Notes: a model not told the origin generated them from the sequence alone. Shown: positions 6,791-61,190, numbered from the stretch's first letter. The stretch is 64,000 bases of DNA from Bacteroidales bacterium (GCA_028686425.1 JAQUBZ010000001.1:50536-114535), one strand, 5' to 3'. A program made the numbers and translations.

Positions 6791-9445
6791 CTACAATCCT
6801 ATCTTTCTTTTCAGTTCCCTTATGGTGTCAAAAGCCTCCAAAGGGGACATTTTGTTAATATCAATTCGTTTGAGTTCATCTTTAATATCAAGCAGCAAAG
6901 GATCATCAAGCTGATACAAAGACAATTGTATTGGCTTGCTTTCAGCCTTTTTCGCTGATTTGGCTTCATTTCCCTTTGAACCCTCAAGGGATTTCAGTTT
7001 CTTTTCGGCTTGTCTGACCACCGTCTCAGGCATACCGGCAAGCTTGGCGACATGAATACCGAAACTGTGAGCAACTCCGCCTTCACACAATTTACGAAGA
7101 AATATGACCTTTCCATCAACCTCTTTGACCGAGATATGATAATTGTGAACTCTCTCATAAAGAGATTCGAGATCATTAAGTTCGTGATAATGAGTGGCAA
7201 ACAGAGTTTTAGGGCAAGGATTGAAGCGATTGTCCTCCCCTTCATGCAAATATTCAACAATAGACCACGCTATGGACATGCCGTCATAGGTACTTGTTCC
7301 TCTTCCTATTTCATCAAGCAGAATGAGAGAGCGTTGCGATACATTGTGAAGTATCGTGGCCGTTTCAAGCATTTCGACCATAAATGTCGATTCCCCCTTT
7401 GAAATGTTGTCGGAAGCACCCACTCTGGTAAAAAGCTTGTCGATAAAGCCTATTTGGGCCCTTTGCGCCGGCACGAAGCAACCAATCTGAGCAAGAAGCA
7501 CAATCAGTGCAGATTGTCTCAGAAAAGCAGATTTACCTGCCATATTAGGCCCTGTCAATATAATAATCTGCTGAGAGTTATTACTCAAATAGAGGTCGTT
7601 GGCAATATACTCCTCTCCCGGATTCATCATTGTCTCTATTACGGGATGCCTTCCACCTGTAATCCCGATCTCGAGAGAATCGTTCATTTCAGGACGGCAA
7701 TAGTGATTGGTTACAGCAAGCTGCGCAAATCCGACAAGGCAGTCAAGCGAGGCAATCGTTGTCGCATTTCGCTGAATGACCTGAATATTATTCCGTATTT
7801 CTGCAACCAACTCTGTATATAACTGTGTCTCAAGCTCTAAAATCCTCCCTTCAGCACCCAGGATTTGTTCCTCATACTCTTTTAATTCCGGAGTAATATA
7901 CCTCTCGGCATTTACCAGAGTCTGTTTCCGAATCCAGTCGGAAGGCACTTTGTCCGAATGGGTGTTGCGGACCTCAAGGTAATAGCCGAACACATTATTG
8001 TAACTTATTTTCAGAGAGGAAATTCCGGTCCTCTCTTTCTCCTGTTGCTGTATTTGAAGCAGAATATCCTTTCCGTGATTGAGGGTATTGCGCAACTTGT
8101 CGAGATCTTCATTCACACCGGTGGCAATCACGTCACCCTTACCTATCTGAGAGGCGCACTCCTGCAAAATGGAGCAGGTAATGGTCTCATTCAATGCCGT
8201 ACAACCATCCAACGAGGAGATAAATTCTGAAAATACATCGTCAGCACTCGATCCACCGCTACCACTCAGCAGCTGCTTTATTTCGGCAACATTTTTTAGG
8301 CCTCTTCCCAATTGAAGCACCTCTCGAGGAGCGATTTTCCCTGCTGCCGCCTTAGATACAATCCTTTCAAGATCTCCGATATTCCCTATCGCCGTCTGTA
8401 CCTTCTCCCTCAACTCTCCGTCGGCGACAAAGGCCGATACCACATCATAACGATGTTCAATTTTAGAAATATCCTTCAAAGGCATTGAGAGCCACTCCTT
8501 CAAAAGCCTTGCCCCCATCGGCGAAGAACACCTGTCTATGACCGAAAGAAGCGATCTGCCCTCATTCCCCCCGAAAGAATTGAATATTTCCAGATTACGA
8601 AAAGTAAATCTGTCCATCCATACAAAATCGCCCTCATCTATCCTTGAAATGGCCCGAATATGTCCCAGACTGCTATGTTGTGTCATTTCAAGATAAAAAA
8701 GAACAGCACCTGACGCACTGATGCCGAGTGGAAGCTGCTCTACCCCGAAACCTTTCAGCGATTCGAGACCGAAATGGGTACACAACTTCTTACGACACGA
8801 CTCATATACAAACGCCCATTCATCAAGAGTCGAAATATACGCGATATTGCCAAATCTCTTTCGAAATCCATCCTGATACCCTTTTTCAATCAAAATCTCT
8901 TTCGGGGACATATTTGAAAGAAGCACCTCAATATACTCCATCGACCCCTGTGCTATCTTAAAAGTACCCGTGGATATATCGAGAAAGGCTATTCCGGCCT
9001 TGTCCGATGTGTTACCTGTCCGGGTATCCTTATTAAAATAGACAGCTGCCAGAAAATTGTTCTCGTCTTGCCGAAGCAGATTGTCGTTGTATGCCACTCC
9101 GGGAGTAACAAGCTCCGTGACACCCCTCTTGACGATTTTTTTGGTCAATTTGGGGTCCTCAAGCTGGTCACACACCGCCACCTTATACCCTGCTTTGACA
9201 AGCTTGGGCAAATAAGTGTCGATGGCATGGTGCGGAACTCCTGCTAATTCAGTATAAGTGCCTGAACCTGTGGCTTTACGCGTAAGAACAATACCCAACA
9301 CTTTACTCGTAATAATTGCGTCTTCACCAAAGGTTTCATAAAAATCACCCACCCTGTACAACAGCAGAGAATCGGGATAATTTGATTTTATCTCGAAAAA
9401 CTGCTTCATAAGCGGAGTTTCTGCTACTTTCTTTTTATCATTCAT
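6791..9445 (-). CDS. mutS: DNA mismatch repair protein MutS
   Basis: TPLMKQFFEIK N-terminus, Walker A GPNMAGKS, and DEIGRGTSTYDG. I prefer the internal ATG (MNDKKK...) over the ORF-track start at 9493. Confidence 0.95.
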   Translation of the reverse strand: MNDKKKVAETPLMKQFFEIKSNYPDSLLLYRVGDFYETFGEDAIITSKVLGIVLTRKATGSGTYTELAGVPHHAIDTYLPKLVKAGYKVAVCDQLEDPKLTKKIVKRGVTELVTPGVAYNDNLLRQDENNFLAAVYFNKDTRTGNTSDKAGIAFLDISTGTFKIAQGSMEYIEVLLSNMSPKEILIEKGYQDGFRKRFGNIAYISTLDEWAFVYESCRKKLCTHFGLESLKGFGVEQLPLGISASGAVLFYLEMTQHSSLGHIRAISRIDEGDFVWMDRFTFRNLEIFNSFGGNEGRSLLSVIDRCSSPMGARLLKEWLSMPLKDISKIEHRYDVVSAFVADGELREKVQTAIGNIGDLERIVSKAAAGKIAPREVLQLGRGLKNVAEIKQLLSGSGGSSADDVFSEFISSLDGCTALNETITCSILQECASQIGKGDVIATGVNEDLDKLRNTLNHGKDILLQIQQQEKERTGISSLKISYNNVFGYYLEVRNTHSDKVPSDWIRKQTLVNAERYITPELKEYEEQILGAEGRILELETQLYTELVAEIRNNIQVIQRNATTIASLDCLVGFAQLAVTNHYCRPEMNDSLEIGITGGRHPVIETMMNPGEEYIANDLYLSNNSQQIIILTGPNMAGKSAFLRQSALIVLLAQIGCFVPAQRAQIGFIDKLFTRVGASDNISKGESTFMVEMLETATILHNVSQRSLILLDEIGRGTSTYDGMSIAWSIVEYLHEGEDNRFNPCPKTLFATHYHELNDLESLYERVHNYHISVKEVDGKVIFLRKLCEGGVAHSFGIHVAKLAGMPETVVRQAEKKLKSLEGSKGNEAKSAKKAESKPIQLSLYQLDDPLLLDIKDELKRIDINKMSPLEAFDTIRELKRKIGL

Positions 9446-9481
9446 AGTGACAAAAATACCAATAATTTTCTCTTTAAATGT

Positions 9482-9489
9482 TATCTTTG
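9482..9489 (+). promoter_or_regulatory. -7 box (TATCTTTG) upstream of the serine hydrolase gene
   Basis: TAnnTTTG match 37 nt upstream of the ATG at 9526. Confidence 0.4.
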
Positions 9490-9525
9490 TCAAACAATTT
9501 TTTAATCAATTAAAATACAACAATA

Positions 9526-10671
9526 ATGATAAGAAAATCTTCTCTTCTACTCTCCTTTTTCCTAATGCTTTCCGTTACGGCCTGCACAAGCGACCCGACT
9601 GCAAAGTTTGAAAAAGAAATGGATACCTTCCTGAAAGATATTCAAAATGTCGGCATGGGTGTTGCCGTTGTCAAAGACAATCAGGTTATATACAACCACT
9701 CCTTCGGAGTCAAAAACCTTGATACCCAAGAGGCTGTAACAAATGAAACACTATTCAGAATAGCCTCCATCTCCAAATCATTTTCAGCCACATCAATGAT
9801 GCAGCTTCGCGAACAGGGGCTTGTATCGCTCGATACGGACGTCAGCGAACTTATGGGATTTCCTATCAGAAACCCGAAATATCCCGAAACAGTCATCACT
9901 CTTGCCATGCTGATGTCCCACACTTCAAGCCTTAACGACAATGAAGGATATTTTACCCTTGATGTCATCAATCCTGCCACCAATCCCAACTGGGCCAACT
10001 GCTACAACGATTACGAACCCGGCAAAGGTTACGAATATTGCAATCTCAACTTCAACATGACGGGAACTTTCATCGAAAAGCTTTCAGGTGAAAGATTTGA
10101 CCAATACGTCAAACACCACGTACTCGACCCTCTCGGTCTATACGGCGGTTATTGTGTAGATTCGCTTGACACTTCACGTTTCGCCACACTTTACGAATAC
10201 AACAACAAGGCAGACTCTCTTGAAGCTTGTCCCGAAGCATACGCACCGAGATCCGAACAGATCAGGAACTACACCATGGGATACTCCACTCCTGTATTTT
10301 CTCCGACAGGAGGGATGAAGATTTCAGCTCTCGACCTCGCAAAATACATGATGATGCACATGAATTACGGAACTTCCCCTGATGGTGTCAGGATTATTTC
10401 AGAAGAGAGCTCAAAGATAATGCAGACCCCTCTTTCAGATCCGGAACACTACGGAATGGCTTTGTGGGTAACCGATGAATATACTCCGGGAATCAAACTT
10501 GTCGGACATACGGGAGGTGCTTACGGCCTAAGAAGCGCAATGTTTTTCAATCCTGCGGAAAAATACGGATTTGTTGTCATCAGCAACGGTTCAAAAGATG
10601 TTGCAAGTGACGGCAAGACCGATATTCTGACAGGTCCAATCCAATTAATGTATAAATACTTTGTCAAATAA
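9526..10671 (+). CDS. serine hydrolase (beta-lactamase/PBP4* family) lipoprotein
   Basis: 381 aa with a lipoprotein signal (SVTAC), the SxxK motif SISKSF, and a YxN-like motif. Fits the class C beta-lactamase-related fold. Confidence 0.8.
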   Translation: MIRKSSLLLSFFLMLSVTACTSDPTAKFEKEMDTFLKDIQNVGMGVAVVKDNQVIYNHSFGVKNLDTQEAVTNETLFRIASISKSFSATSMMQLREQGLVSLDTDVSELMGFPIRNPKYPETVITLAMLMSHTSSLNDNEGYFTLDVINPATNPNWANCYNDYEPGKGYEYCNLNFNMTGTFIEKLSGERFDQYVKHHVLDPLGLYGGYCVDSLDTSRFATLYEYNNKADSLEACPEAYAPRSEQIRNYTMGYSTPVFSPTGGMKISALDLAKYMMMHMNYGTSPDGVRIISEESSKIMQTPLSDPEHYGMALWVTDEYTPGIKLVGHTGGAYGLRSAMFFNPAEKYGFVVISNGSKDVASDGKTDILTGPIQLMYKYFVK

Positions 10672-11968
10672 CAGAAACATAAAGCAAGTGCGTCCCAAGA
10701 AACGCCACTACGATAACCAGCCTGATGAAGGTTTCCAACGTGATGGCTTCGATGATTACAATCGCGACGGCAACCGTGGCAGCAATTGCAACGGTGATAA
10801 TGACCATTTCTGTTTTGGCGGTGACCGCAATGAAAATCGTGATGATGATTACTCTGTAAACGGCTGCGGTCGAAGTGAAGGTTACATTGGTAATTTTTCA
10901 AAGGTGCGTCCCAAGAAGAACTTGGGACAGCACTTTTTGACAGATCAGGCGATTGCCGGCAAGATTGTCGATTCCTTACAGTCAGACGGCAACGTCCTTG
11001 AAATAGGCCCCGGCATGGGAGTACTCACACAGTACCTCCTCCAAAAAGACAACATTTTACTGAAGGTCATTGAAATAGATACCGAATCCGTCCAATACCT
11101 TCTGGAACATTTTCCGAAGCTCGCTCCAAACCTTTATGAAGCAGACTTCCTTAAAATGGATTTATCCAAACTATTTTCAGGACACCATGCAAAACAATCT
11201 GACAATAACGACAGCAATACCAACCGCCCCGCCACCACCGATGACGACAACAGTATCTCAACTTTTGCTTCCGCTAATCATACCGTAGCTACAAACAATG
11301 ACATCGTTTCGGCCATAGATGACGCCAACGCCGACAATGCCACGACTGCAGATTATGATGACAGTATAATGCAATCAGCAGGGCAGCCGGATACAACCAA
11401 ACCATTTTCAGACAATACCCTTGACTCACTCAACGCTGACAGTTACATCAACGCCGGCATTTCTGAAACAGCACTGTCCGGAAATACATCCAAACAATTT
11501 TCAGTAATAGGAAACTTTCCATACAACATCTCCTCCCAGATTTTCTTCAAGATTCTCGACTACATTGACAGCGTGCCGGAAATTGTCTGCATGCTGCAAA
11601 AAGAAGTTGCAGAACGCCTTGCAGCCCCTCCGGGAAGCAAAACTTACGGCATCCTTTCCGTGTTGCTCCAGACGTGGTATGACATCGAATATCTCTTTAC
11701 AGTCGGAGAAGGCTCTTTCCTTCCACCACCAAAAGTCAAATCAGCCGTGATAAGACTCAAACGCAACAACCGTACTCAACTTGGCTGTGACAGTGACCTG
11801 TTCAAACGCATCATCAAGACCACTTTTAATCAGCGCCGCAAGACCATACGCAATTCCATCAAACCCCTTCAGCTTGAACTACCTCCCGACACACCATTCC
11901 TCGACAAACGCCCCGAACAACTATCCGTAGAAGACTTCATCCTCCTGAGTCAGACACTCCAAGCATAA
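10661..11968 (+). CDS. rsmA: 16S rRNA (adenine1518/1519-N6)-dimethyltransferase RsmA/KsgA carrying two in-frame insertions
   Basis: KsgA motifs VRPKKNLGQHFL, EIGPGMGVLT, IGNFPYNISSQIFFK and PPKVKSAV. No ATG start is available. Candidate starts are TTG 10661, GTG 10688 and GTG 10904. At 435 aa it is about 170 aa longer than typical KsgA. Confidence 0.85.
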   Translation: MSNNRNIKQVRPKKRHYDNQPDEGFQRDGFDDYNRDGNRGSNCNGDNDHFCFGGDRNENRDDDYSVNGCGRSEGYIGNFSKVRPKKNLGQHFLTDQAIAGKIVDSLQSDGNVLEIGPGMGVLTQYLLQKDNILLKVIEIDTESVQYLLEHFPKLAPNLYEADFLKMDLSKLFSGHHAKQSDNNDSNTNRPATTDDDNSISTFASANHTVATNNDIVSAIDDANADNATTADYDDSIMQSAGQPDTTKPFSDNTLDSLNADSYINAGISETALSGNTSKQFSVIGNFPYNISSQIFFKILDYIDSVPEIVCMLQKEVAERLAAPPGSKTYGILSVLLQTWYDIEYLFTVGEGSFLPPPKVKSAVIRLKRNNRTQLGCDSDLFKRIIKTTFNQRRKTIRNSIKPLQLELPPDTPFLDKRPEQLSVEDFILLSQTLQA

Positions 11969-11970
11969 CA

Positions 11971-12006
11971 TATTACCAATCCCACGACTATTACCAATCC
12001 CACGAC
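11971..12006 (+). repeat. 18-bp tandem direct repeat x2 (TATTACCAATCCCACGAC)
   Basis: Two adjacent exact copies lie immediately after the rsmA stop. Confidence 0.9.
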
Positions 12007-12037
12007 ATCACAACATCACAAACGGCGTATCTTACGA

Positions 12038-12096
12038 CATACTGCGATGTATTTTACGGCATACTGCGATGTATCTTCACGCATACTGCGATGTAT
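12038..12096 (+). repeat. 22-bp-period tandem repeat x3 (core CATACTGCGATGTAT)
   Basis: The core starts at 12038, 12060 and 12082. Confidence 0.9.
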
Positions 12097-12226
12097 CTCC
12101 CGTCCAGAATATACATCCGAGCAGCAACACAAACCAATCCATCACGGAACATCACCGGAGCCGCCATCCCCGAAACCATTACAAGGACTTCCGTCACGGA
12201 ACATCACCGGAGCCTTTCACCCCGAC

Positions 12227-12264
12227 CACCCTGTGGCAATCAGACCCTTGAAAGCCACGGGGTG
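12227..12264 (-). repeat. REP-like hairpin repeat, inverted orientation relative to the other copies
   Basis: CACCCTGTGGC-N16-GCCACGGGGTG, an 11-bp stem with one G-T pair. It is followed by the reverse complement of the conserved spacer. Confidence 0.85.
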
Positions 12265-12331
12265 GAAAGTGGCAAAAATACAATCGCGGCCAGACATACG
12301 CCAGAGGCATCATCGCTGAAGCAAGCGATTT

Positions 12332-12369
12332 CACCCTGTGGTGATCATAGCCTCGAAAGCCACGGGATG
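12332..12369 (-). repeat. REP-like hairpin repeat, degenerate copy
   Basis: CACCCTGTGGT-N16-GCCACGGGATG, about 105 nt after the previous copy. Confidence 0.7.
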
Positions 12370-12649
12370 GCAATACGTCATCGCGGAGACGCTTCTCCCC
12401 GTAAAGCCAATCCCTCCCAGACACACATCAAAGCCATCAACAGACACTATTATTACAATCACTCTCGGACCATTTGGATACAGCCCCAACAGCAACCTAC
12501 AGCTGCAATCACTGAAATACATTGCAAATGGACCCGGATTTCTACGCCGAAGTTTTGTGCAATAAGTTTCTGATTCTTGTTGTCACATAGGGCTTTTGTG
12601 GGTTTGTGCACCTTGTGATTATTCGTTGCATACACTGACAACTGCTTAT

Positions 12650-14314
12650 TTACCAATATTTTACCTGAAGAATTATTGGCAAGTGGTCACTGACACCACC
12701 GTTATACCGAGGACCGATATGAGTACGAAAAGGCTTGAACCCGAGATATGTCTTATCTTTTTCAGTAATGTATTCATTTTTGTAAATATCCATGTTGCAA
12801 TACGGCCTCATATTTTCAGAGACTAAAAATTGATCGATCAGCTCCCAGATGCCTCTGTACCTGATGGAACCTTCTCCATTTTCAGCTATTTCGACCGCAA
12901 GATTATTAAGGGGGACATTTTGCAGGGCTTCTCCGTCCGGGGTATCATTAAAGTCCCCCATCACGATTATCCCTTGACGAGAAGCAGGTATTGTCTGATA
13001 ATCAGCCACTTTGCCAAAAATATGATTGTCAGAACAAATGATCCGATCTGCCTTAGCAATAGAATCGATTTTCATTTTCAGAGTATTTGATGCAGACATC
13101 CTTTTGCCTGATGAAGCTTCTGTCCCGCTTATTTTTGAAGGCCAATGATTTACGAAGATGTGCAGTGTGTCCCCCGATTGCATGAAGTGTGTAGCTCCTG
13201 TTTCAGGATGGCTTTGCGATTTGTGAGAATGACTTTGCGACTGGTGAGGATTATTTTCAGAGATGGATAATGTGTCCGAAGTGGAATATTTTTCAGAGGT
13301 GGAAGGCGAGCCCGTAGAAGTGAGTTGGTCAGAGGCTGAAGGCGAGCCCGTAGAAGTGAGTTTGCCGGAGACTGGAAGTGTGCCCGTAGAAGTGAGTTGG
13401 TCAGAGGCTGAAGGCGAGCCCGTAGAAGTGAGTTTGCCGGAGACTGGAAGTGTGCCCGTAGAAGTGAGTTTGCCGGAGACTGATAGTGTGCCGTCTGGAG
13501 ACAGAAGTATTCCTTTCACGTATAGAATATCACGAGTAGTTGTCTCCGGGATTGTCACAGGTATGGCCTCTACTGTCAGCACTCTGAATCGGTCTTTTCT
13601 ATATAGCATGGCCACATCTATGCCTCGTTTGTCCGGGCTGTCGCGGTGCACAATCGAATAATTGAGCCTGTACAAAGGCGTTTCCTTCAATAGTTGATTG
13701 AGAACAAATCTGTTTTCGACCTCGGCAAATCCGATAATTATCGGGAAATCACCATATTGCTGTGATATTGAAATAATTGTCTTGGCAATGCTGTTACGTT
13801 TACGAATAAACTTTTTCCAACTCCAATGATATTTGCCGCCATAAGAGAAGTCCTCATCATCAGTGAGTTCGTCATTGAAAGGATCAAAATAATTCTCAAG
13901 ATTCCAAAACATCATCGTAGCCTTTGTGCCGGATTTCTCCTCATGGCTTTCCTCTTTGCTGCTTTCCACCCCGTGGCTTTCAAGGGTCTGATTGCCACAG
14001 GGTGAAATCGATGAAGTCGTTAGCTTCAGCGATGATGCCTCCGGCGTGTGTCTGTGCGGGATTGGATTTTTGCAGGTGTCCACCCCGTGGCTTTCGAGGG
14101 TCTGATTGCCACAGGGTGAAGTCGCTGGCTTCAGCGATGATGTCTCCGGCGTGTGTCTGCGCGGGATTGGATTTTTGCTGCTGTCCACCCCGTGGCTTTC
14201 GAGGGTCTGATTGCCACAGGGTGAAGTCGCTGGAGACGATGGAGACATGTATATCTGAATATTTGTCGAAAGCAGCCATACAAATGCTACAAAGATTATA
14301 TATAGATTTTTCAT
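12650..14314 (-). CDS. endonuclease/exonuclease/phosphatase (EEP) family protein with repeat-derived insertions
   Basis: EEP motifs (MFWNLENYFDPF, FAEVEN, IFVNHWPSK, MGDFND, GGVSDHLPI). The signal-peptide-like start MKNLYIIFVAFVWLL is at 14314. An alternative start, MMFWNL, is at 13915. Confidence 0.75.
   Translation of the reverse strand: MKNLYIIFVAFVWLLSTNIQIYMSPSSPATSPCGNQTLESHGVDSSKNPIPRRHTPETSSLKPATSPCGNQTLESHGVDTCKNPIPHRHTPEASSLKLTTSSISPCGNQTLESHGVESSKEESHEEKSGTKATMMFWNLENYFDPFNDELTDDEDFSYGGKYHWSWKKFIRKRNSIAKTIISISQQYGDFPIIIGFAEVENRFVLNQLLKETPLYRLNYSIVHRDSPDKRGIDVAMLYRKDRFRVLTVEAIPVTIPETTTRDILYVKGILLSPDGTLSVSGKLTSTGTLPVSGKLTSTGSPSASDQLTSTGTLPVSGKLTSTGSPSASDQLTSTGSPSTSEKYSTSDTLSISENNPHQSQSHSHKSQSHPETGATHFMQSGDTLHIFVNHWPSKISGTEASSGKRMSASNTLKMKIDSIAKADRIICSDNHIFGKVADYQTIPASRQGIIVMGDFNDTPDGEALQNVPLNNLAVEIAENGEGSIRYRGIWELIDQFLVSENMRPYCNMDIYKNEYITEKDKTYLGFKPFRTHIGPRYNGGVSDHLPIILQVKYW
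13293..13490 (+). repeat. 36-bp tandem repeat array (two alternating unit types, about 5.5 units) inside the EEP gene
   Basis: Units start at 13311, 13347, 13383, 13419 and 13455. Each begins CCCGTAGAAGTGAGTT. They are in frame (12 aa each). Confidence 0.9.
13966..14224 (+). repeat. three tandem REP-like units (hairpins at 13966-14005, 14080-14119, 14185-14224)
   Basis: Each unit is CCACCCCGTGGCTTTC(A/G)AGGGTCTGATTGCCACAGGGTGA plus the conserved spacer ..CCTCCGGCGTGTGTCTG(T/C)GCGGGATTGGATTTTTGC... Unit lengths are 114 and 105 nt. Confidence 0.9.
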
Positions 14315-14324
14315 AGTCGTGGAT

Positions 14325-15272
14325 TTACATTGCAAGACAACGTTTGATTTGTCGATCTTTAATATGAAACATACTTTTCAGTTCTTTGGCAGCAGATTGC
14401 TTCTCTTCAAGAGTCAATTGCGTATAAGCTTTTTTGCGAAACCGAGGAACTATCTTATTATCAATGTATTCGCAAATAACCATATCGTCATGTTCTATTG
14501 GTTTGAAATGACCGCGTTCATTGGAAAGCAATTCCGAAATATTATAACGACGTTTATTTTCAATGGTTTCTAAAGTTATAGGAGGCAATATCTCATGAAA
14601 AGGAAGAGTATCTTTTTCCTGTTCTCGAGACCACTCTTCATCCGACACCCTATTTAAATGATATAGAAAACGCCTCGCAGTTGTGAAATAATTTTCAGCT
14701 ATTACTATTTCAACGAAAGACTCTGGAAGAATAATACCCTGCGGAGTCAATTTATAATGCGAAGGAATCTTTCCATTTTGAGGCAAATAGTTTCTTGGAA
14801 TACGCCTGCAAGTCTCTGGTAATAAGTCTTGTTGTTTAATGCCTAAGATATCTTTAACATGTAAATCTTTTGTAAAATAACAATTGATTGATGAAAAAGG
14901 ATATGCAAATGAAGTGGTACATACACCATGATGAATGGGATTTCTTAAAATATAACTTGCAACGGCTGTGGCATGGTGCACTCCAACAATAGTGTTACAA
15001 AAAATCTTTTTTTCACCAAGTCTTCCTTTCCTAAAATATCTACTATTGAAGTGTTTGGTAACACTAAGTCTGAAAACTTTCATAAAAGCAGATGGATTAT
15101 CGCTAAGTAACATCAGATGAATATGATCAGACATTAATGCGTAACAAATCAATTTAGAATTAGTGGCATAAAGTGATAATGCCAGACTATTCCGGGCAAA
15201 AAGATAATCATTTGAATCCCTGAAAAGGACTTCATTATGAGATGAATAGCAAATGTGAAATAATTCTGTCAT
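14325..15272 (-). CDS. IS200/IS605-like Y1 (HUH) transposase, RAYT-type, with a C-terminal extension
   Basis: 315 aa with an ATG start. HUH motif in SDHIHLML (H50-I-H52) and a catalytic-Tyr motif SYILRNPIHHG (Y107), at the spacing expected of Y1 transposases. Flanked by palindromic repeats. Confidence 0.7.
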   Translation of the reverse strand: MTELFHICYSSHNEVLFRDSNDYLFARNSLALSLYATNSKLICYALMSDHIHLMLLSDNPSAFMKVFRLSVTKHFNSRYFRKGRLGEKKIFCNTIVGVHHATAVASYILRNPIHHGVCTTSFAYPFSSINCYFTKDLHVKDILGIKQQDLLPETCRRIPRNYLPQNGKIPSHYKLTPQGIILPESFVEIVIAENYFTTARRFLYHLNRVSDEEWSREQEKDTLPFHEILPPITLETIENKRRYNISELLSNERGHFKPIEHDDMVICEYIDNKIVPRFRKKAYTQLTLEEKQSAAKELKSMFHIKDRQIKRCLAM

Positions 15273-15398
15273 GAATCTACCTCCTCAATCTTTCTAAAAA
15301 TTAAACAAAGAATTTGTATAGAAACAAAGTTATAAAAGAAGTTACATTAACTGCAAATAAAAGTGAAGATCTGGAAGAAATTTCTTTTTTAAGGTACT

Positions 15399-15540
15399 CA
15401 CATCGTGGCTTTCTACCCCTTGATTGCCACGAAGTGGATTGGTTGGCTTCGGAGAGGATGCCTCCGGCGTGTGTCTGTGCGGGATTGTATTTTTGCCCCC
15501 TCCACATCGTGGCTTTCTACCCCCTGATTGCCACGAAGTG
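15399..15540 (+). repeat. two REP-like units, sequence variant (hairpins at 15399-15438 and 15502-15540)
   Basis: CACATCGTGGC-TTTCTACCCC(T/C)TGATT-GCCACGAAGTG, with the same spacer (CCTCCGGCGTGTGTCTGTGCGGGATTGTATTTTTGC) between the two units. Confidence 0.85.
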
Positions 15541-15549
15541 AATTAAAAA

Positions 15550-15623
15550 GCTATCGTAACAGGAGCGACGAAGCCATCATCAGAATATCATTATCACGGC
15601 TATCGTAACAGGAGCGACGAAGC
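15550..15623 (+). repeat. perfect 25-bp direct repeat (GCTATCGTAACAGGAGCGACGAAGC) spaced 49 bp apart, spanning the SNF transporter stop codon
   Basis: Copies at 15550-15574 (just beyond the stop) and 15599-15623 (within the last codons of the gene). Confidence 0.95.
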
Positions 15624-16938
15624 GTATTATAAAGAAGACCGTTTCAAGCAGCCATTGCGGAATCTTGAGCGTTCCGTGGTTGGTCAATTCGTCAAAGGCA
15701 GCCGTTTTGCCAAGTCTCCATCCTACAAAAATCACTATCAGCAATCCCCCTATCGGCATCAGGACATTGGAGGAAACATAGTCAAACAAATCAAAAATAT
15801 TCATTCCGAATAGTTTGACACCGCTCATTGCCCCTTGAGACAACGAACAGAAACATCCGAGCAAAAGAATTATTCCAAAAGCAATGGCCACAGCCCCGCC
15901 TCTTTTCATCTTAAACTCTTCAATCAGGTAAGAGACAAACACTTCAAGCAGTGAAATGGATGATGTCAGAGCGGCAAGCAGCAATGTTACAAAAAACAGT
16001 ATTGCGATTACACCTCCAAGCGGTAGAGAGGCAAAGATTCTCGGTAAAGTTATAAATACAAGGCCAGGACCTTCTCCCGGACTGATTCCAAAAGCAAATA
16101 CCGCCGGCATAATTGCACATCCTGCAATGATTGCAAAAAGAGTGTCCGCAATAGACGTATAGGCCGAACACTTCATTATATTTTCATCCTTGCTCACATA
16201 CGAGCCATAAGTCATTATCGTGCCACATCCCAATGAAAGCGAAAAAAATGCCTGTCCGAGCGCAGCGAGAAAAGTTCCGGATGTAACTTTCGAAAAATCA
16301 GGCTTGAACATATACGATACCCCTGCTCCGGCGCCCTCAAGTGTCAGAGAGCGTATAGCAATTATAATCACCATTACAAACAACATCGGCATCATCATTT
16401 TGGTATATTTTTCTATACCTTTCTTGATTCCTGCCAGCACCACAAATGCAGTAAGAGCCATAAAAGCAAGGTGATACAACAAAGGTTTGACGGGTGACGA
16501 GACAAAATCGCTGAACATTGTCGCATGATTGGCTTCACTTCCCGCCCTCGTAAAATCGAACAAAACCGCTTTTACCAGATATTCTATCGACCATCCTCCC
16601 ACAACACTGTAAAACGACAATATGCAGATGGATGCCAGCACTCCGAAAATTCCGATTATCCCCCATTTTGAGCCGGGAGCGAGAACGCGAAATGCCCCGA
16701 ACACATTGGACTGGCTCCTCCTTCCGAGGATAAATTCTGAAAACATAATCGGAAGGCACAGCACGAAAACAAATACAAGGTAAATAATGATAAATGCCGC
16801 CCCTCCGTTTTCCCCCATCAAATATGGGAACCTCCATAAATTGCCAAGCCCTATCGCCGAACCGGCCATGGCCACAAGTACTCCGAACCTGCTGCCGAAA
16901 TTGTCGCGTGAAGAGACTTCTATGTTGTTAGTTTTCAT
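15580..16938 (-). CDS. sodium-dependent transporter (neurotransmitter:sodium symporter/SNF family)
   Basis: 452 aa, multi-TM, with the NSS signature GLGNLWRFPYL near the N-terminus. The ATG start overlaps the folA 3' end by 11 nt. Confidence 0.9.
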   Translation of the reverse strand: MKTNNIEVSSRDNFGSRFGVLVAMAGSAIGLGNLWRFPYLMGENGGAAFIIIYLVFVFVLCLPIMFSEFILGRRSQSNVFGAFRVLAPGSKWGIIGIFGVLASICILSFYSVVGGWSIEYLVKAVLFDFTRAGSEANHATMFSDFVSSPVKPLLYHLAFMALTAFVVLAGIKKGIEKYTKMMMPMLFVMVIIIAIRSLTLEGAGAGVSYMFKPDFSKVTSGTFLAALGQAFFSLSLGCGTIMTYGSYVSKDENIMKCSAYTSIADTLFAIIAGCAIMPAVFAFGISPGEGPGLVFITLPRIFASLPLGGVIAILFFVTLLLAALTSSISLLEVFVSYLIEEFKMKRGGAVAIAFGIILLLGCFCSLSQGAMSGVKLFGMNIFDLFDYVSSNVLMPIGGLLIVIFVGWRLGKTAAFDELTNHGTLKIPQWLLETVFFIIRFVAPVTIAVIMIF

Positions 16939-17761
16939 TGGTTAAGTATTGTATGAACTGAAAATCGAAATTGGTCTTTGTGTCGTGAAACACTTCACTT
17001 TCCCAGATTATCCTCCATTTTGAGGAGTCTATCTTTGGAAAATATGTATCTGCGTCATCTATTATAGTCTTGACGGAGGTTATGTAGAGACGATACGCTC
17101 CGGGCATGGTCTGCCGGTAAATTTCACCGCCGCCGATGACAAAGATTTCGTCACGGGAAGCCATTTTCAGGGCCTCTTCAATAGAAGGAGCAACCATTGT
17201 GACCGTAGCAGCTGCTCCGGCAGCAGCGCCGACAGCAGCCCCACCCCCAACACTTCCCCCGACACAAACAGCAACATCCCCGGCAGCAGCGCCGACAGCA
17301 TCCACGGACCCCCGGACAACACTCCCGGCAACAACCCCGACAGCAGCCCCACCCCCGACACTTCCACCGACACAAACAGCAACATCCCCGGCAGCAGCGC
17401 CAACAGCAGCCACGGACCCCCGGACAACACTCCCGGCAACATCCTCGACAGCAGCCCCGACAGCAGCCCCGCCCCCGACACTTCCCCCGACACTTCCACT
17501 GGCCACGACATCACTCCCAACTGCAGCAAAGGCAGCCTTCTCCACGGTCAGGCTGCGGCTGACAATAATATTTTCACGAAGTGGTAAAGGCTTGCAACCC
17601 AACGACTCCCATGTGTGCCGCCCCATAATGACAGTTCCATTTTTAGTAAGCTTCTTAAAATATTTCAGGTCCGCAGAAATATGCCAAGGCATCCGGTTCC
17701 CACGACCGATCGCCATATTTTCAGAAGTGGCAACTATCAATGAATATCTCTTGCTTGTCAT
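16928..17761 (-). CDS. folA: dihydrofolate reductase with a ~115-aa Gly/Ala/Val-rich repeat insertion
   Basis: DHFR motifs ([47 protein letters not shown]). The ATG at 17759-17761 overlaps the thyA stop (ATGA), suggesting translational coupling. Confidence 0.85.
17233..17500 (+). repeat. 108-bp GC-rich tandem repeat (about 2.5 units) inside folA
   Basis: CAGCAGCCCC(A/G)CCCCC... recurs at 17233, 17341 and 17449. The period is 108 bp (36 codons). It is C-rich on the + strand and has no stops in several frames. Confidence 0.9.
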
Positions 17762-18552
17762 ACGGCAATGGGGGCCTTTATTCCCGGCCACGGGTTATAA
17801 TTTGTTAGCGTAAAATCCTCATATTCAAATGAATATATGTCTTTTTTATCCAGATTGATCGTCATTTGCGGAAGAGACCTCACTTCTCTCGAAAGTTGTG
17901 TTTCCACCTGCTGAAAATGGTTCAGATAGATGTGTGCATCTCCCAGAGTATGAACGAAATCGCCCAACTCATATCCACACACCTGTGCAATCATTTGTGT
18001 AAGAAGAGCATACGAGGCAATATTGAACGGCACTCCTAAAAATACATCGGCACTTCTCTGATAGAGCTGGCAGGAGAGGCGTCCGTCCGCAACATAAAAC
18101 TGAAACAGGCAGTGGCACGGAGGAAGGGCCATGGAATCGATTTCTGCCACATTCCAAGCGGAAATGATGTGTCTGCGCGAATCGGGATTGCGTTTGAGTT
18201 GATCAATAAGATTGGTCAGCTGATCTATTGTACCTCCGTCCGGCGCAGGCCAGCTTCTCCATTGATGTCCATAGACCGGACCAAGCTCTCCTCCGGCATC
18301 AGCCCACTCGTCCCAGATGGTCACTCCGTGATCATTGAGATATTTAATATTGGTACTCCCGGAAATAAACCACAGCAATTCGTAAATAATTGACTTCAAA
18401 TGGACTTTCTTGGTGGTCAGAAGCGGAAACCCTTCGTTGAGATTAAAACGCATCTGATAGCCGAAAATGCTCTTTGTTCCGACTCCCGTGCGGTCACTCT
18501 TGACCACACCATTATCCATTATATGTTGAAGAAGATCTAAATATTGTTTCAT
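17758..18552 (-). CDS. thyA: thymidylate synthase
   Basis: 264 aa. [15 protein letters not shown], the active site ALPPCH, and a canonical ThyA length. Confidence 0.97.
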
Positions 18553-18679: not shown

Positions 18680-18760
18680 CCTCCGGCGTGTGTCTGCGCG
18701 GGATTGTATTTTTGCTGCTGTCCACCCCGTGGCTTTCGGAGGCTTGATTGCCACGGGGTG
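18680..18760 (+). repeat. single REP-like unit (spacer plus a perfect 11-bp-stem hairpin)
   Basis: CCTCCGGCGTGTGTCTGCGCGGGATTGTATTTTTGCTGCTG followed by CACCCCGTGGC-N16-GCCACGGGGTG, between thyA and the ATPase gene. Confidence 0.85.
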
Positions 18761-18886
18761 TAATCGATGGCTTCTGCGATGATGGCCACGGCGTGGAATC
18801 GTGGGCTTCGGACCGCAAATTGTCATGAAATGCAATTGACGGCAATATTATTTTTGCCAAACTGTTGCAAGAGTTTATAATATTCG

Positions 18887-18894
18887 TATATTTG
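18887..18894 (+). promoter_or_regulatory. -7 box (TATATTTG) upstream of the AAA+/DUF4143 gene
   Basis: TAnnTTTG match 22 nt upstream of the ATG at 18916. Confidence 0.4.
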
Positions 18895-18915
18895 CAAGTA
18901 AGACTTTGGATTATC

Positions 18916-20076
18916 ATGATAAATAAAAGTATTATGGAGTACGAAAGAATTATGAAACTTGCTGACGCTCAGAGCGAAAGCCTATTTTTATGGGGTGCTC
19001 GTCAAGTCGGCAAGAGTACATTGGTCAAAAAACTCTTTCCTGAAGCAAAGATTTATGACCTTCTGATGAGTGATGAATATGGTCGGCTAATACGACGTCC
19101 ACAACTCTTACGTGAGGAACTTGAGCATCTTGATGAAAACACATTGGTCATTATTGATGAAATTCAAAAAATCCCTCAACTTTTGGATGAAGTTCATTGG
19201 CTGATGGTCAATCGGGGCATCCGATTTATTCTTTGTGGTTCAAGTGCAAGAAAATTAAAACGTATAGGAACAAATCTTTTAGGTGGGCGAGCTTTGCCAC
19301 AAACATTATTTCCTTTGGTAAGTGCTGAGATTCCGGATTTTGATTTGATACGGGGTATCAACAACGGAATGATCCCGCGGCATTACACTATCGATAACCC
19401 CAAGAAACGATTGCAGGCATACATCGGAGTCTATCTTAAAGAGGAGATTCAAGAAGAGGCGCACGTGCGGCAATTAGCCTCTTTTAATAGATTTATGGAT
19501 ATTGCAGCGCAATCTGATGGAGAGATTGTCAACTACTCCGATATCGCACAAGATTGCGGTGTAAGTGCAAGTACTGTAAAGGAGTATTTCAATATTCTGA
19601 ATGAGACTCTTATCGGCTATATGATACCTGCATTTACACTTTCGAAGAAACGGAGAGCAATTCTGGCTCCGAAATTTTACTATTTTGATGTCGGAATTGT
19701 GAATCACCTGCTTAACAGAACAAATCTGATGCCCGGATCTGCAGATTTCGGACATGCATTCGAGCATTTTATGATACAGGAGATTATAGCATATTTAGGA
19801 TATAGCGAGTCAGATGAGAAACTATCATATTGGCGCACTGCCGGAGGTTACGAGGTTGACGCCATTATTGGCAACGGACGCATAGCTATTGAATTCAAAA
19901 GTTCAGAGGAAATTCAATCCAAACATACAAAAGGTTTGAAAGCTTTTTGTGAAGATTTTCCGGATGCAAGAGCAATAATCGTTTCTCTCGACCGAAATCG
20001 CAGAACACTTAATGGTATCGACATATTTCCAGCTATGGAATTTCTGAAAATGTTGTGGGAAGGCACAATCATTTAG
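18916..20076 (+). CDS. AAA+ ATPase (AAA_14/DUF4143 type) with a C-terminal PD-(D/E)XK-like motif
   Basis: Walker A GARQVGKST, Walker B VIIDEIQ, and a C-terminal YEVDAII...IAIEFKS restriction-endonuclease-like motif. I use the first ATG (18916); the ORF-track start is TTG. Confidence 0.8.
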   Translation: MINKSIMEYERIMKLADAQSESLFLWGARQVGKSTLVKKLFPEAKIYDLLMSDEYGRLIRRPQLLREELEHLDENTLVIIDEIQKIPQLLDEVHWLMVNRGIRFILCGSSARKLKRIGTNLLGGRALPQTLFPLVSAEIPDFDLIRGINNGMIPRHYTIDNPKKRLQAYIGVYLKEEIQEEAHVRQLASFNRFMDIAAQSDGEIVNYSDIAQDCGVSASTVKEYFNILNETLIGYMIPAFTLSKKRRAILAPKFYYFDVGIVNHLLNRTNLMPGSADFGHAFEHFMIQEIIAYLGYSESDEKLSYWRTAGGYEVDAIIGNGRIAIEFKSSEEIQSKHTKGLKAFCEDFPDARAIIVSLDRNRRTLNGIDIFPAMEFLKMLWEGTII

Positions 20077-23330: not shown

Positions 23331-26198
23331 TTATTTTATAAGTTTAGCTACAGCAGCATCGTATTCAGCCTTTGCAAGAGCAAGTTCTTTTTCTGCAGTT
23401 GCAAGAGCAGCCTGAGCTTCAGTTAAATTATTTTCTGCAACTTCAATTGCTGTCTGGATTGGATCGTAACCGGCTTCATACTGAGCCAACAATCTCTTAG
23501 CATCCTGATAAGCTTTTTCAGCGTTGTTAATATTTGCTACGATACCTATTACATAAGCATTGAACGCAGTCTTGTAATCTTGATATACGGCTTCAAAATC
23601 AGCACCTGTATATCCTGAAACGTTAGCGGCAGCAGTGTAAGCATCATCAAGAGCAGTCTTAATACTTACCAAGTGACCAATTGTATGGTTAACCTTGTCA
23701 AGTCTGTCTTCCCAATCTTTCTTAGCAGCTGGGTAGTCTTTCAAATACTTATTAGCTATTTCAAGTTGTTTGCCTTTCAAAGTGTATGCACCGTCTTTGA
23801 TTGCAGCATTGAAAGCAATTTCAGTCTTAACGATAACACCGTCTTTCTTACCTGTCAAAGCAATCATTGCTTCATTGTAAGCAGCAGTCTTAACGTCTTC
23901 TTTATCCTGAGCAGCCTTTCTTGCAGTCTCAAGAGCGTCGAAATCGACAGCAAGCTGGTCAACGAATGCTCTCAAAGCTTCGAGAAGTTCTTTATTTGTT
24001 GACTGATTAGCTACATCTTCGTATGCTTGTTGAGCTTTGAAGTAGTCGAACAACATTGAACCAACAAAATAAGATTTAGCAGGGTCAACATTAGGAGTTC
24101 CGAAGTCATTAAAGTCGTTATTAAATCCTGTAACACCTTTCTGAAGGTTTTCAAGGATAATACCTAATTTTTCAGTGTAAATTACATTGGCTCCATCGAA
24201 GAATACAGCCATATCAGGTTGAGTGAATGTTTCAACAGAGAAGTTCAAAGGAAGACTCTTAACAGTATTGTAGTTTGCAGGAGAGAATGTTTTACCCCAG
24301 AAAGCACAAACTGCTTTTTGGTATTCAATCTCAGTTGCAGGAACGAAAGCTGGATCAGTGAACAATGTTGGTGCATCTTCATCATAAGTAAGGCCATTGA
24401 AATACAATTGTCCAACTGTAAGGTCCATTGAATAATCAGTCCAAGTTCCATCAGTCATACTTCTAAGAACTTTAACGAAAGCATCGTTATCAGGATCTGA
24501 AGGAAGAGTCCAATAATTACCCCCATTACCATCATTGGCAATTTGATAACCTAACCAAGGATCAACGTCACCATAAGCAGAACGAGCTCTGAAGTCAGCC
24601 CCACCGTCAGTACCTGAGAATTTGGCTTGAGTGAAACCACCGATAACAAGATCACCAACGAAAGTAGTCTTTACGGTAATTTCTTTGTAAGTAATAGAGT
24701 CATGAGCAGCAGCAGCTTTACCAATGTAAGCAAGTTTTGCTTTTGCAAAGCCTACAAGAGCATTGTAAAGAGATAGAGAGTCAGCTTTTGAAGCTGCACC
24801 ACCTACATAACCCAATTTATAGTCGTTAGCTGCAAAAATAAGTTGATCGATAGCATCAACAAGAGCTTTCTTGGCAGCAGCGGTATTAGCCTTAATGATA
24901 GAGTTGTCTTCCATCAAAGCACGAGTATCTTCGTAATCTTTCTTTGCCTTGTCAGCAGCTTTTTTCAAAGCTTCAATATTGGTAGCGGCATTTGCAGCAA
25001 CCCATTCTCTTTCAAGAGTGGCAACGATAGTTTCAAGACCATTAGCAACAACTACAGGAGCGGCTATAGTATCACCGGTAGAAACTTCTCTTACTTTTTT
25101 GCTTCCACCTGCAAGAACATAAGCCTTGTCGGCATACTGTGCATGAATCTTAAGAGTATCACTTTCTGTACCTACAACAGCATCAACAAAATGAAAATCA
25201 AGAGGAACTGTCTTGTTCCAAGCTGAACCTTCAACACTTGCATAAGTGGTATAAGGGTAAGCATAAGCAAGGAATCTTGCAAACAAAGGAACTGCAAACA
25301 ATTTCTTGTCAAAAGTGTAATTGTTCTTGATAGTTCCGATATCGATAGTTTTACCCTTTGCAGGAAGAGCAGCTTCAGCAGCTTCAACTTCAGCCTTGTA
25401 AGATTCAAAACCTTCGCAGAAAGTGTTAACCATATAGAACACACTGTCCTGAGTGATTTGATACTTGTTATAGTTCAACTTATCCATCGAATCCTGATAT
25501 TTTTTCAGCTCTTTGTTCCATTGTTCCATATCGGCATCTTTGGTAATGCTTGCCAAATAAGCCTGCCAGTATGCAAGTTCGTCAGCTGCATCATTCATGT
25601 CAGCAGTGTATTTAGCTTTCCAGTCGATTGAATCGTTAAGAGAATACTTAGCTGCCCATAAAGCTGCTTCAGCTGCGGTTACACCTTCAACTGCAGTATC
25701 ATAAGCTGCCAATTTAGCCTTATACTCACTGATAACTGTAGTAAGAAGAGCTGCTTCCTCCGGAGTAAGTCTCATCTTTGCAACTTCAATCTTAGCCAAA
25801 GCCACTCTTAAAGCTTCTTCAGCTTCAGCGCGTGCCTGTTTAGCTTGTGCAAGAGCAGCAGCCTGGCGTTCTTTCATGTTATTGATCTCAAGGGTGAGAG
25901 AGTCAATTTCGAGTTGATTTTGAGCTTTTGTAAGTTCATACTCAAGCTCCTTAATCTTTACTTCAACTGCTCTGAAATTGGCATTTTCCTGAATTAATGC
26001 AGCTTCAGCAAGTACACGTACAGCATTTGCTTTCTGCAAGTCTGCATCTGCGAGTCTTAGTTGAGAGAGAGCATCAAGATAATCGGCCTTAGCCAATCTC
26101 AGTTCTTGAATACCAACAGGCTCAACATAATCAATACAAGAAGTGAAAAGACTGCCGGCAGCAATCATAATCACTAATGAATAAATAATCTTTTTCAT
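23331..26198 (-). CDS. large coiled-coil surface lipoprotein, function unknown
   Basis: 955 aa with a lipobox (GSLFTSC). Long Ala/Glu/Lys-rich heptad-like stretches at both termini flank a globular middle. I recognised no family motif. Confidence 0.6.
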   Translation of the reverse strand: MKKIIYSLVIMIAAGSLFTSCIDYVEPVGIQELRLAKADYLDALSQLRLADADLQKANAVRVLAEAALIQENANFRAVEVKIKELEYELTKAQNQLEIDSLTLEINNMKERQAAALAQAKQARAEAEEALRVALAKIEVAKMRLTPEEAALLTTVISEYKAKLAAYDTAVEGVTAAEAALWAAKYSLNDSIDWKAKYTADMNDAADELAYWQAYLASITKDADMEQWNKELKKYQDSMDKLNYNKYQITQDSVFYMVNTFCEGFESYKAEVEAAEAALPAKGKTIDIGTIKNNYTFDKKLFAVPLFARFLAYAYPYTTYASVEGSAWNKTVPLDFHFVDAVVGTESDTLKIHAQYADKAYVLAGGSKKVREVSTGDTIAAPVVVANGLETIVATLEREWVAANAATNIEALKKAADKAKKDYEDTRALMEDNSIIKANTAAAKKALVDAIDQLIFAANDYKLGYVGGAASKADSLSLYNALVGFAKAKLAYIGKAAAAHDSITYKEITVKTTFVGDLVIGGFTQAKFSGTDGGADFRARSAYGDVDPWLGYQIANDGNGGNYWTLPSDPDNDAFVKVLRSMTDGTWTDYSMDLTVGQLYFNGLTYDEDAPTLFTDPAFVPATEIEYQKAVCAFWGKTFSPANYNTVKSLPLNFSVETFTQPDMAVFFDGANVIYTEKLGIILENLQKGVTGFNNDFNDFGTPNVDPAKSYFVGSMLFDYFKAQQAYEDVANQSTNKELLEALRAFVDQLAVDFDALETARKAAQDKEDVKTAAYNEAMIALTGKKDGVIVKTEIAFNAAIKDGAYTLKGKQLEIANKYLKDYPAAKKDWEDRLDKVNHTIGHLVSIKTALDDAYTAAANVSGYTGADFEAVYQDYKTAFNAYVIGIVANINNAEKAYQDAKRLLAQYEAGYDPIQTAIEVAENNLTEAQAALATAEKELALAKAEYDAAVAKLIK

Positions 26199-38562: not shown

Positions 38563-39372
38563 TTAATCTTTCAACTTGGCAGACAAAAATTCCCTGTTAA
38601 GTCTTGCAATATGCGAAACTTTTATACCCTTAGGACATTCCATCTCGCAAGCTCTTGTATTAGTGCAAGATCCGAAACCAAGTTCGTCCATTTTGGCAAC
38701 CATGGCCTTTGCTCTTTTAGCACCCTCTATCTTACCTTGAGGTAATAAAGCGAGAGAACTTACGCGGGCGGCAACGAACAACATTGCAGAACCGTTCTTG
38801 CAAGTGGCCACACAGGCACCACAACCTACACAGGCAGCGGCATCCATACTTTCATCAGCATTTTCCTTTTTGATAGGAATGGCATTTGCATCGGGAACAC
38901 CACCTGTATTGACAGAAATGAACCCACCTGCCTGAAGTATCTTATCAAATGCACCTCTGTCAACAACAAGGTCCTTTATAACAGGAAAACCTTTACTTCT
39001 CCAAGGCTCGATGGTAATAGTATCTCCATCTTTAAACTTGCGCATGTGGAGCTGACAAGTGGTAATATCGTTGTCCGGTCCGTGTGCACGACCATCAATA
39101 TATAGAGAACACATACCGCAGATACCTTCCCTGCAATCGTGGTCAAATGCGACAGGTCCGCTATGAGTAGTGCCGTCGAGACCCACTACGCCTCCCCTGC
39201 AACCTTTATTAATAGCGACAGGCTCTTTACATTCGTTGATAAGTTGCTCATTCAGAATATCCATCATTTCAAGAAATGAGGAGTCCGGAGATATGTTGTT
39301 TACTTTGTAAGTTTCAAAATGACCTTTGCTTTTAGCATCTTTCTGACGCCATACTTTTAATGTTAAATCCAT
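38563..39372 (-). CDS. frdB: fumarate reductase/succinate dehydrogenase iron-sulfur subunit
   Basis: 269 aa. Cys clusters [20 protein letters not shown] and [12 protein letters not shown]. Contains an extra 22-codon segment just before the first cluster. Confidence 0.93.
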
Positions 39373-61146: not shown

Positions 61147-61190
61147 TTCTTGTTAATAAATCGACAAATAAAAGCAATACAACGAACATA

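Follow-up and report, generated by a model that had tools for sequence, protein, structure and literature searches.

Core enzymes of bacteria seldom contain long disordered inserts, and it is unusual to catch such inserts in the process of arising. Slippage-driven change in the copy number of coding tandem repeats is textbook knowledge, and template switching of the fork stalling and template switching (FoSTeS) or microhomology-mediated break-induced replication (MMBIR) type leaves junctional duplications and filler insertions. A system of another kind, the REPtron, reportedly consists of a gene for a REP-associated tyrosine transposase (RAYT) flanked by repetitive extragenic palindromes (REPs). 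Here, we analyze a 64-kb stretch of one strand from an uncultured Bacteroidales species (64,000 nucleotides, GCA_028686425.1 JAQUBZ010000001.1:50536-114535; hereafter the window, with positions counted from its first letter). In this window, rsmA, folA, which encodes dihydrofolate reductase (DHFR), and a gene of the endonuclease/exonuclease/phosphatase (EEP) family carry frame-preserving extra DNA in the same region as a RAYT-like gene and a family of REP-like repeats, which we refer to simply as REPs.

REPs residing within genes have been described previously. Intragenic REP clusters encode 43-82 aa and favor the N-terminal end of the open reading frame (ORF) over its end, and the authors caution that many of the N-terminal ones are possibly untranslated (PMC3733652). 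Rickettsia palindromic elements (RPEs) are in-frame palindromic repeats in protein-coding genes (Di Nocera et al. 2013, PMC3733652; Ogata et al. 2000, as presented in PMC3733652).

The locus studied here resembles intragenic REPs and RPEs in that a hairpin family tied to a tyrosine HUH transposase-like gene is found in frame within an ORF, near its N-terminus, where the cluster would specify tens of residues. However, the units in the EEP gene are long (~105 bp) and form direct arrays instead of inverted dimers, the host belongs to Bacteroidales, the stem end has no GTAG or CGTC tag and the copy number varies between strains. In addition, the start of the array-bearing EEP gene is ambiguous, as its closest orthologue starts downstream of the array. 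Like a REPtron, the locus has a single HUH/Y1 gene with REP hairpins on both sides and conserved HxH and Tyr residues. Unlike in a REPtron, ~180 aa at the C-terminus of the ~310-aa protein form a conserved extension, the Y1_Tnp and REP_Tyr_transpos cutoffs are not reached and no PDB sequence hit was obtained, and only a handful of REP copies are seen in the window plus a metagenome scan. With coding variable number tandem repeats, such as those of the repeat-containing DfrA1 (NCBIfam NF000008, present in our profile hit list), the folA and EEP arrays share head-to-tail units, multiples of three and copy-number polymorphism between strains, but they reside in housekeeping enzymes, not in surface or contingency genes, and several lie within 5 kb. 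The short duplications and orphan filler at or near junctions, with flanking repeats of variable length, are reminiscent of FoSTeS/MMBIR, except that the filler template was not found in the window or databases and that repeats of 14-25 bp are longer than typical microhomologies. Three features stand out as less usual: several large inserts of recent origin crowded into housekeeping enzymes near a single REP locus, direct arrays of long REP units, and a distant RAYT-like family.

Results

Lineage-specific inserts in rsmA, EEP and folA

The frame-preserving extra DNA in rsmA, folA and EEP is confirmed to be genuine and lineage-specific. Four further assemblies of this species contain the window locus, with 99.3-99.8% nucleotide identity: a 273-kb ENA SPAdes contig (L001), an NCBI metagenome-assembled genome (L002, GCA_028708885.1), a Logan assembly (L003) and a contig from a fermentation metagenome (L091, at 3x coverage only). 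All the same-species assemblies carry inserts, and every allele is in frame. The nearest relative with a long contig is L089 (GCA_002314725.1). A first-pass annotation, made by a model from the window sequence, had entertained the possibilities that the inserts are absent from independent assemblies or conserved across the family. Instead, the RsmA, DHFR and EEP inserts are all seen in L001, L003 and L091, the nearest relatives lack them, and 117 of the 120 best-matching RsmA homologues are only 250-269 aa long. Ancient conserved domains as the identity of the inserts were therefore ruled out, given that the nearest relatives and most RsmA homologues do without them. Several inserts are young, being absent at ~80% protein identity and still changing copy number at ~99.3-99.8% DNA identity. 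In the comparison with L089, ParA, AspRS, YchF, MacB, MutS, SNF and ThyA differ by no more than 11 aa at any single site, and Pfam matches are unbroken in the other ~37 genes of the window.

The rsmA gene (16S rRNA dimethyltransferase; 10688-11968, plus strand) encodes 426 aa if translated from GTG 10688, other starts being TTG 10661 and GTG 10904. Its Pfam RrnaAD and TIGR00755 ksgA matches are each split into two stretches, orthologues have 250-260 aa, and relative to the 251-aa orthologue of L089 it has 70 extra residues at the N-terminus and 104 internally. Of the three homologues outside the 250-269-aa range, one is the protein of the same species (426 aa) and the other two carry small inserts of their own; ~2% of homologues exceed 270 aa. 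Insert 1 (10688-10917, plus strand) consists of 202 bp of orphan DNA (10702-10903) between two perfect copies of the 14-bp direct repeat GTGCGTCCCAAGAA (10688-10701 and 10904-10917; spacing 216 bp), and its product is an N-terminal extension rich in D, N, G and R. There are 0 stops in the rsmA frame of this insert versus 15 and 1 in the other two frames, and it would be translated only from a start at GTG 10688 or TTG 10661; a start at GTG 10904 would leave it out of the protein. Insert 2 (11164-11504, plus strand) consists of 307 bp of orphan DNA (11181-11487) between copies of the 17-bp direct repeat ATCCAAAC(T/A)ATTTTCAG (11164-11180 and 11488-11504; one mismatch, spacing 324 bp). The loop preceding the GNFPY motif is thereby lengthened by 104 aa, and the in-frame codon usage of the insert is gene-like. 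Both inserts are open in the rsmA frame alone. In an AlphaFold model of RsmA (24 homologues), the methyltransferase core has a predicted local distance difference test (pLDDT) score above 90, and the inserts (residues 9-69 and 167-266) are predicted with pLDDT below 50 and without secondary structure.

Perfect repeats of 14-25 bp located exactly at orthologue-defined insert boundaries are far beyond chance expectation (~4^-14 per position pair). A diverged tandem duplication was also considered as the origin of the two rsmA inserts and rejected, as the in-register identity is 0.29 and 0.28 versus 0.27 for the codon-shuffled null (p 0.18 and 0.28). Small low-complexity inserts of other kinds are present in RsmA of L013 and in P0111 and P0114.

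The EEP gene (12650-14314, minus strand; 554 aa from ATG 14314) matches Pfam PF19580 in two stretches, and its alleles encode 554, 551 and 492 aa across three assemblies, compared to 287 aa for the L089 orthologue. Relative to orthologues, the extra residues are aa 24-133 and aa ~277-378. The former correspond to about three REP units placed in frame between the signal-peptide-like segment MKNLYIIFVAFVWLLSTNIQ and the catalytic domain (array 13916-14245, minus strand; homology over 13955-14233; units of 105, 105 and 114 bp). The ORF at 12650-14335 runs through the three units with 0 stops, versus 3 and 2 in the other sense frames; the codon usage of the array is not gene-like. The array is missing at this site in L009, L013, L024 and L030, where the signal peptide runs directly into the FWNxENFF motif, and the EEP proteins of L089 and L018 begin at that motif, also without the array. 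In particular, the closest orthologue (L089) starts at the equivalent of Met134. The array is coding only with the start at ATG 14314 and may instead be a 5' untranslated region with the start at Met134. The array also varies between strains, L091 having two units (114 bp fewer) and L001 differing by 9 bp. The second EEP insert (13175-13486, minus strand) amounts to ~100 aa rich in S, T and G and is built on a 36/72-bp tandem array (13293-13492). It is lacking in L009, L013 and L089 and is 72 bp shorter in L091.

In folA (16928-17761, minus strand; start overlapping the thyA stop), the Pfam DHFR_1 match is likewise in two stretches, and the protein is 277 aa long compared to 165 aa in L089. 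The insert (17195-17551, minus strand) contributes ~110 aa rich in G, A and V and is built from a hierarchical array (17217-17497) in which 12-bp units make up 108-bp ones. DHFR residues 7-70 and 190-272 align to residues 3-65 and 75-158 of PDB 1zdr, and residues 71-189 stand in place of a nine-residue surface loop of that structure. The insert is lacking in L009, L013 and L089. L001 and L003 have an allele shorter by 228 bp, and the long form is backed by L004. Several short contigs (L002, L004-L008) end within the folA repeat.

Frame preservation and clustering of events

In coding DNA of the window, the periods, lengths and strain indels are all multiples of three (3, 9, 12, 36, 66, 72, 105/114, 108, 114, 216, 228 and 324 bp), whereas nearby non-coding DNA shows repeat periods of 22, 25, 49 and 104 bp as well as indels of 1-5 bp. 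A frame filter by selection is evident from this difference. Both the multiples of three in rsmA, EEP and folA and the role of frame-preserving selection had been put forward in the first-pass annotation, and both hold.

The events are also clustered. Tandem Repeats Finder returned 16 rows over the window, representing ~11 distinct arrays, of which ~8 fall within 11.97-17.5 kb (binomial p ~4e-7). All but one of the indels relative to L001 lie in 11.99-17.46 kb, and the density of single-nucleotide polymorphisms (SNPs) relative to L001 is higher there than in the adjacent mutS and beta-lactamase-family (bla) genes. Low-complexity segments are found in 4 of the 43 proteins, namely RsmA, EEP, DHFR and one unknown protein (Fisher p 0.006, chosen post hoc).

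Rearrangement of the region and duplication at the SNF stop codon

In relatives (L089, L009, L013 and L018), the genes are arranged on one strand in the order EEP-thyA-folA-SNF-rsmA-mutS. In the window, the order is thyA-folA-SNF-(REP)-RAYT-(REP)EEP-(REP field)-rsmA (inverted)-bla-mutS, with REPs also upstream of thyA, and therefore the old SNF/rsmA junction has been broken. Every junction of the rearranged blocks holds a REP cluster. The bla gene (9526-10671, plus strand) lies between mutS (6791-9493, minus strand) and rsmA and belongs to the rearranged block; in L089, rsmA and mutS are adjacent, with no gene between them.

Direct repeats mark both sides of the broken junction, a 25-bp one next to SNF and the 14-bp one next to rsmA. 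The former (15550-15623, minus strand; period 49 bp) is GCTATCGTAACAGGAGCGACGAAGC, found in two perfect copies at 15550-15574 and 15599-15623 and spanning the stop codon of the gene for the SNF-family transporter (15580-16938, minus strand). One copy encodes the last SNF residues, and the other is located past the stop, 24 bp on and 5 bp from a REP. The perfect 14-bp and 25-bp repeats were found just as the first-pass annotation had described them, and so was the single mismatch of its 16-bp repeat, the length of which is however 17 bp; its weak 9-bp repeat at EEP insert 2 shrinks to only ~6-7 bp (CACACT), which is not significant. In L091, the SNF gene has a 42-bp in-frame deletion (equivalent to 16450-16491 of the window) that removes part of a predicted membrane helix and may be an assembly error.

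The REP family and the RAYT-like gene

The REP unit is ~105 bp long and comprises a hairpin with a 9-bp stem (CCCTGTGGC/GCCACGGGG; dG -19.7 kcal/mol, z -3.1) followed by a linker. The family forms five clusters, all within 12.2-18.8 kb of the window. In addition to the EEP array, ~2.5 units of 105 bp (12229-12426) end an intergenic repeat field (11971-12426; 18 bp x2, 22 bp x3.3 and 25/52-bp repeats preceding the REP array) in the repeat-filled spacer between rsmA and EEP (11969-12649), and this field has indels relative to L001 at 11993-12046. Two variant units with a period of 104 bp lie between the RAYT-like gene and SNF (15399-15544); L091 has one unit there (104 bp fewer), and L001 shows a 1-bp indel. 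Two more copies are found upstream of thyA (18681-18795), at the site occupied by the EEP gene in relatives; an AAA_14/DUF4143 gene (18865-20076) adjoins these REPs. Neither a GTAG nor a CGTC tag is present at the stem ends of the main REP, and the variant REP has GTAG only within the loop. A metagenome scan with the REP core returned two contigs only, with one further locus (L092), and no REPs were detected at the fetched loci of relatives.

The RAYT-like HUH/Y1 gene (14325-15272, minus strand; 315 aa) has REPs on both sides (13955-14233 and 15399-15544). Its product matches Pfam Y1_Tnp (PF01797) with E 8.6e-4 and 19.9 bits (cutoff 23) and NCBIfam REP_Tyr_transpos (NF047646) with 33 bits (cutoff 80), and a PDB sequence search with it gave noise matches only. 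It has the motifs SDHIHLM and ASYILRNP, and H50, H52 and Y107 are invariant in 15 homologues. With its 33 database hits (285-322 aa, 34-44% identity), the protein forms a small, uncharacterised family in which HxH and S-Y-x-L-R are invariant, the next N is nearly so, and a C-terminal extension of ~180 aa is conserved (W214, Q218, D221, E238, D263, C267, R311 and C312). The RAYT-like gene directly adjoins an Exo_endo_phos_3 gene both in the window (12650-15272) and in L098 (771-2944; RAYT-like protein 34% identical), and in L096 (2229-3275) an Exo_endo_phos_3 gene is 7 kb from a RAYT-like gene; this neighborhood may be conserved.

Duplications at other REP and RAYT-like loci

The further REP locus, L092, comes from the same metagenome as L091. 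It carries a 46-bp tandem duplication (93% identical) that includes the stop of a gene for an M28-like peptidase and is separated by 12 bp from a REP copy (L092 88-231), a layout matching that of the SNF tail. In L095, a RAYT-like gene (34% identical) lies between arrays with a 106-bp period (L095 features 9445-9843, 10937-11173 and 11286-11411), and the adjacent DAHP (3-deoxy-D-arabino-heptulosonate 7-phosphate) synthase/chorismate mutase gene contains six 21-bp units, in frame, that derive from the AGPCSVE motif of the gene itself. Over seven loci, tandem arrays are ~5-fold denser within 2.5 kb of RAYT-like genes (p 0.012). A literature search on the join points of REP-mediated duplications found nothing directly applicable in the library that was searched.

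Extra segments elsewhere in the window

Two further extra segments had been reported by the first-pass annotation. The diverged tandem duplication in frdB (39094-39225, minus strand; 66 bp, 22 additional aa) was found and is 48% identical in register, above the codon-shuffled null. MnmG (49262-51295) appears to have ~40 aa beyond the domain models, a non-repetitive segment at ~aa 549-590 between GIDA_C_1st and SAM_GIDA_C, although this segment is deduced from Pfam coordinates only.

The thyA gene (17758-18552, minus strand) precedes folA. A 955-aa protein without a Pfam match (23331-26198) has two low-complexity segments, a 3-bp strain indel at 25087 and the highest SNP density relative to L001 (30 SNPs in 24-26 kb). 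Intergenic tandem repeats at 61190-61297 (32 bp x3.3) and 62851-62884 (11 bp x3.1) flank a second AAA_14 gene (61344-62531), to which the one at 18865-20076 is paralogous.

Discussion

Based on the inserts, their lineage specificity, polymorphism and clustering, the frame filter and the rearrangement, as observed in this region, we favor the reading, to which we would give about an even chance, that 10.6-18.8 kb of the window is a recently rearranged, REP-punctuated local hotspot of slippage, duplication and rearrangement, filtered by selection. In such a hotspot, ~105-bp REP units, together with the RAYT-like HUH/Y1 gene, would have reached five sites, one of them being the 5' part of the reading frame of EEP. 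The 12- and 36-bp units in folA and EEP may have been amplified hierarchically by replication slippage or unequal recombination, with the copy number still changing. The orphan segments of rsmA and the 49-bp duplication at the SNF stop could have arisen, along with their 14-25-bp direct repeats, by template switching or microhomology-mediated repair, for which direct repeats of this kind are typical. Both the 5' insert of rsmA and the SNF tail are located at the former SNF/rsmA junction, which was disrupted by the inversion of rsmA and the relocation of the RAYT-EEP block. Purifying selection would then purge events that break the frame or the folded core, leaving multiples of three in surface loops or termini that are predicted to be disordered.

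This scheme differs from the single shared mechanism suggested in the first-pass annotation, which does not hold: the EEP REP array is the mobile repeat itself, the folA and second EEP inserts are tandem expansions, and frdB is a plain duplication. In other words, the picture of filler flanked by repeats fits the two rsmA inserts and the SNF tail, but not the EEP REP array, the tandem arrays or frdB. The annotation's view that the inserts do not resemble each other and are not one mobile element was borne out by mutual comparison. Its remark on proximity to the RAYT/REP locus stands as far as the clustering is concerned, which is real; a causal link is suggestive only, with L092 and L095, two other REP loci with similarly duplicated flanks, speaking for it, and a scan of ~65 genes and the lack of such inserts at five or six further loci with RAYT-like genes against it. 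We regard it as possible but rather doubtful that REP hairpins or RAYT nicking raise the local event rate. A stronger version seems to us rather improbable, namely that the REPtron-like locus is a local mutator in which REP hairpins or RAYT-like nicking stall replication and provoke slippage or template switching within ~2 kb. It is just as improbable that such a mutator would have repeatedly seeded frame-preserving disordered inserts in neighboring essential genes (rsmA, folA and EEP; DAHP synthase in L095).

A number of observations weigh against the hotspot and its connection to REPs, and many of them are what would be expected if ordinary slippage and duplication had acted independently at permissive loops or termini, the nearness of REP/RAYT being a coincidence or the mark of a recombination-prone patch. 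This explanation is not the likeliest one, but it deserves serious consideration. In five other Bacteroidales with folA next to thyA (L010, L016, L020, L021 and L023), DHFR is interrupted by unrelated insertions of some 15-60 aa, placed either in the loop affected in the window or in the one beyond the next helix, no RAYT-like gene was detected in the fetched flanks of these inserts, and this part of DHFR seems generally permissive to insertions. The small low-complexity inserts in L013 RsmA, P0111 and P0114 point in the same direction, as do the frdB duplication, 21 kb from any REP, and the mnmG segment, also far from any REP. Even the folA and rsmA inserts are 0.75-1.9 kb from the nearest REP and do not adjoin it. 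An entropy scan of ~65 genes around seven other RAYT-like genes detected no low-complexity inserts of the RsmA or DHFR kind, and therefore the case for a general REP link is weaker; moreover, the enrichment of tandem arrays near RAYT-like genes partly counts the REP arrays themselves. The clustering statistics are post hoc and come from one 64-kb window. Nonetheless, independent events do not readily account for five large inserts in three of six adjacent genes, which is far above the background of none in ~37 other window genes. Nor do they explain why non-coding tandem arrays and strain indels concentrate in the same 5.5 kb, or why L092 and L095 repeat the pattern of duplication at REP flanks.

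Another possibility, in our opinion a fairly improbable one, is that a single complex rearrangement by serial template switching of the MMBIR/FoSTeS type moved the RAYT-EEP block and inverted rsmA, with the repeat-flanked inserts as by-products at its junctions and the tandem arrays as unrelated later slippage. It agrees with the change from the ancestral order of L089, L009, L013 and L018 to that of the window, with the 25-bp and 14-bp repeats flanking the broken SNF/rsmA junction, and with repeats of variable length (14, 17 and 25 bp) around orphan filler. However, rsmA insert 2 is inside the gene and not at the junction, the filler template is absent from the window and databases, and ongoing copy-number change and the parallels in L092 and L095 are left without an account. 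The source of the filler is a difficulty for our own scheme as well. A search for a template of the rsmA inserts on both strands of the 64-kb window gave only chance matches of 9-16 nt. Comparison of the insert peptides with 5.8 billion proteins gave 19 word-sharing candidates, none significant, although this search was probably limited by the low-complexity filter, the same-species protein having gone unscored too. As the rsmA inserts have no identifiable source, the flanking repeats alone carry the assignment to template switching. The second copy of the 17-bp repeat is, in addition, four residues out of register with the ancestral loop, and therefore it is no simple target-site duplication. 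A further idea is that an unrecognised mobile element, one making long target-site duplications, left copies of itself as the rsmA inserts and the SNF-tail segment. Direct repeats exactly at the insert boundaries would suit such an element, but they vary in length (14, 17 and 25 bp), the inserts have neither sequence nor terminal inverted repeats in common, no other copies of them turned up in the window or databases, and their sizes differ (24, 202 and 307 bp), making it very improbable. A single mobile element for all inserts was ruled out, the inserts being mutually unrelated. Least probable of all, to the point of being negligible, are errors of assembly or binning that would have mis-joined repeats or produced chimeras. 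The short contigs L002 and L004-L008 do end inside the folA repeat, and L091 has 3x coverage. However, identical inserts and junctions are found in ENA, NCBI and Logan assemblies that derive from different samples and assemblers and are 99.3-99.8% identical, and all alleles are in frame; on the basis of four assemblies, this explanation was ruled out.

If the REP link fails, the locus would be a well-documented case of ordinary slippage plus purifying selection. If it holds genome-wide, REP loci would be a source of structural variation in their surroundings and of novel stretches of protein, going beyond passive selfish DNA, and the locus would offer a system to study how enzymes such as DHFR tolerate loop inserts of ~110 aa. 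The local mutator, if true, would show concretely how new parts of bacterial proteins can be made by selfish repeats.

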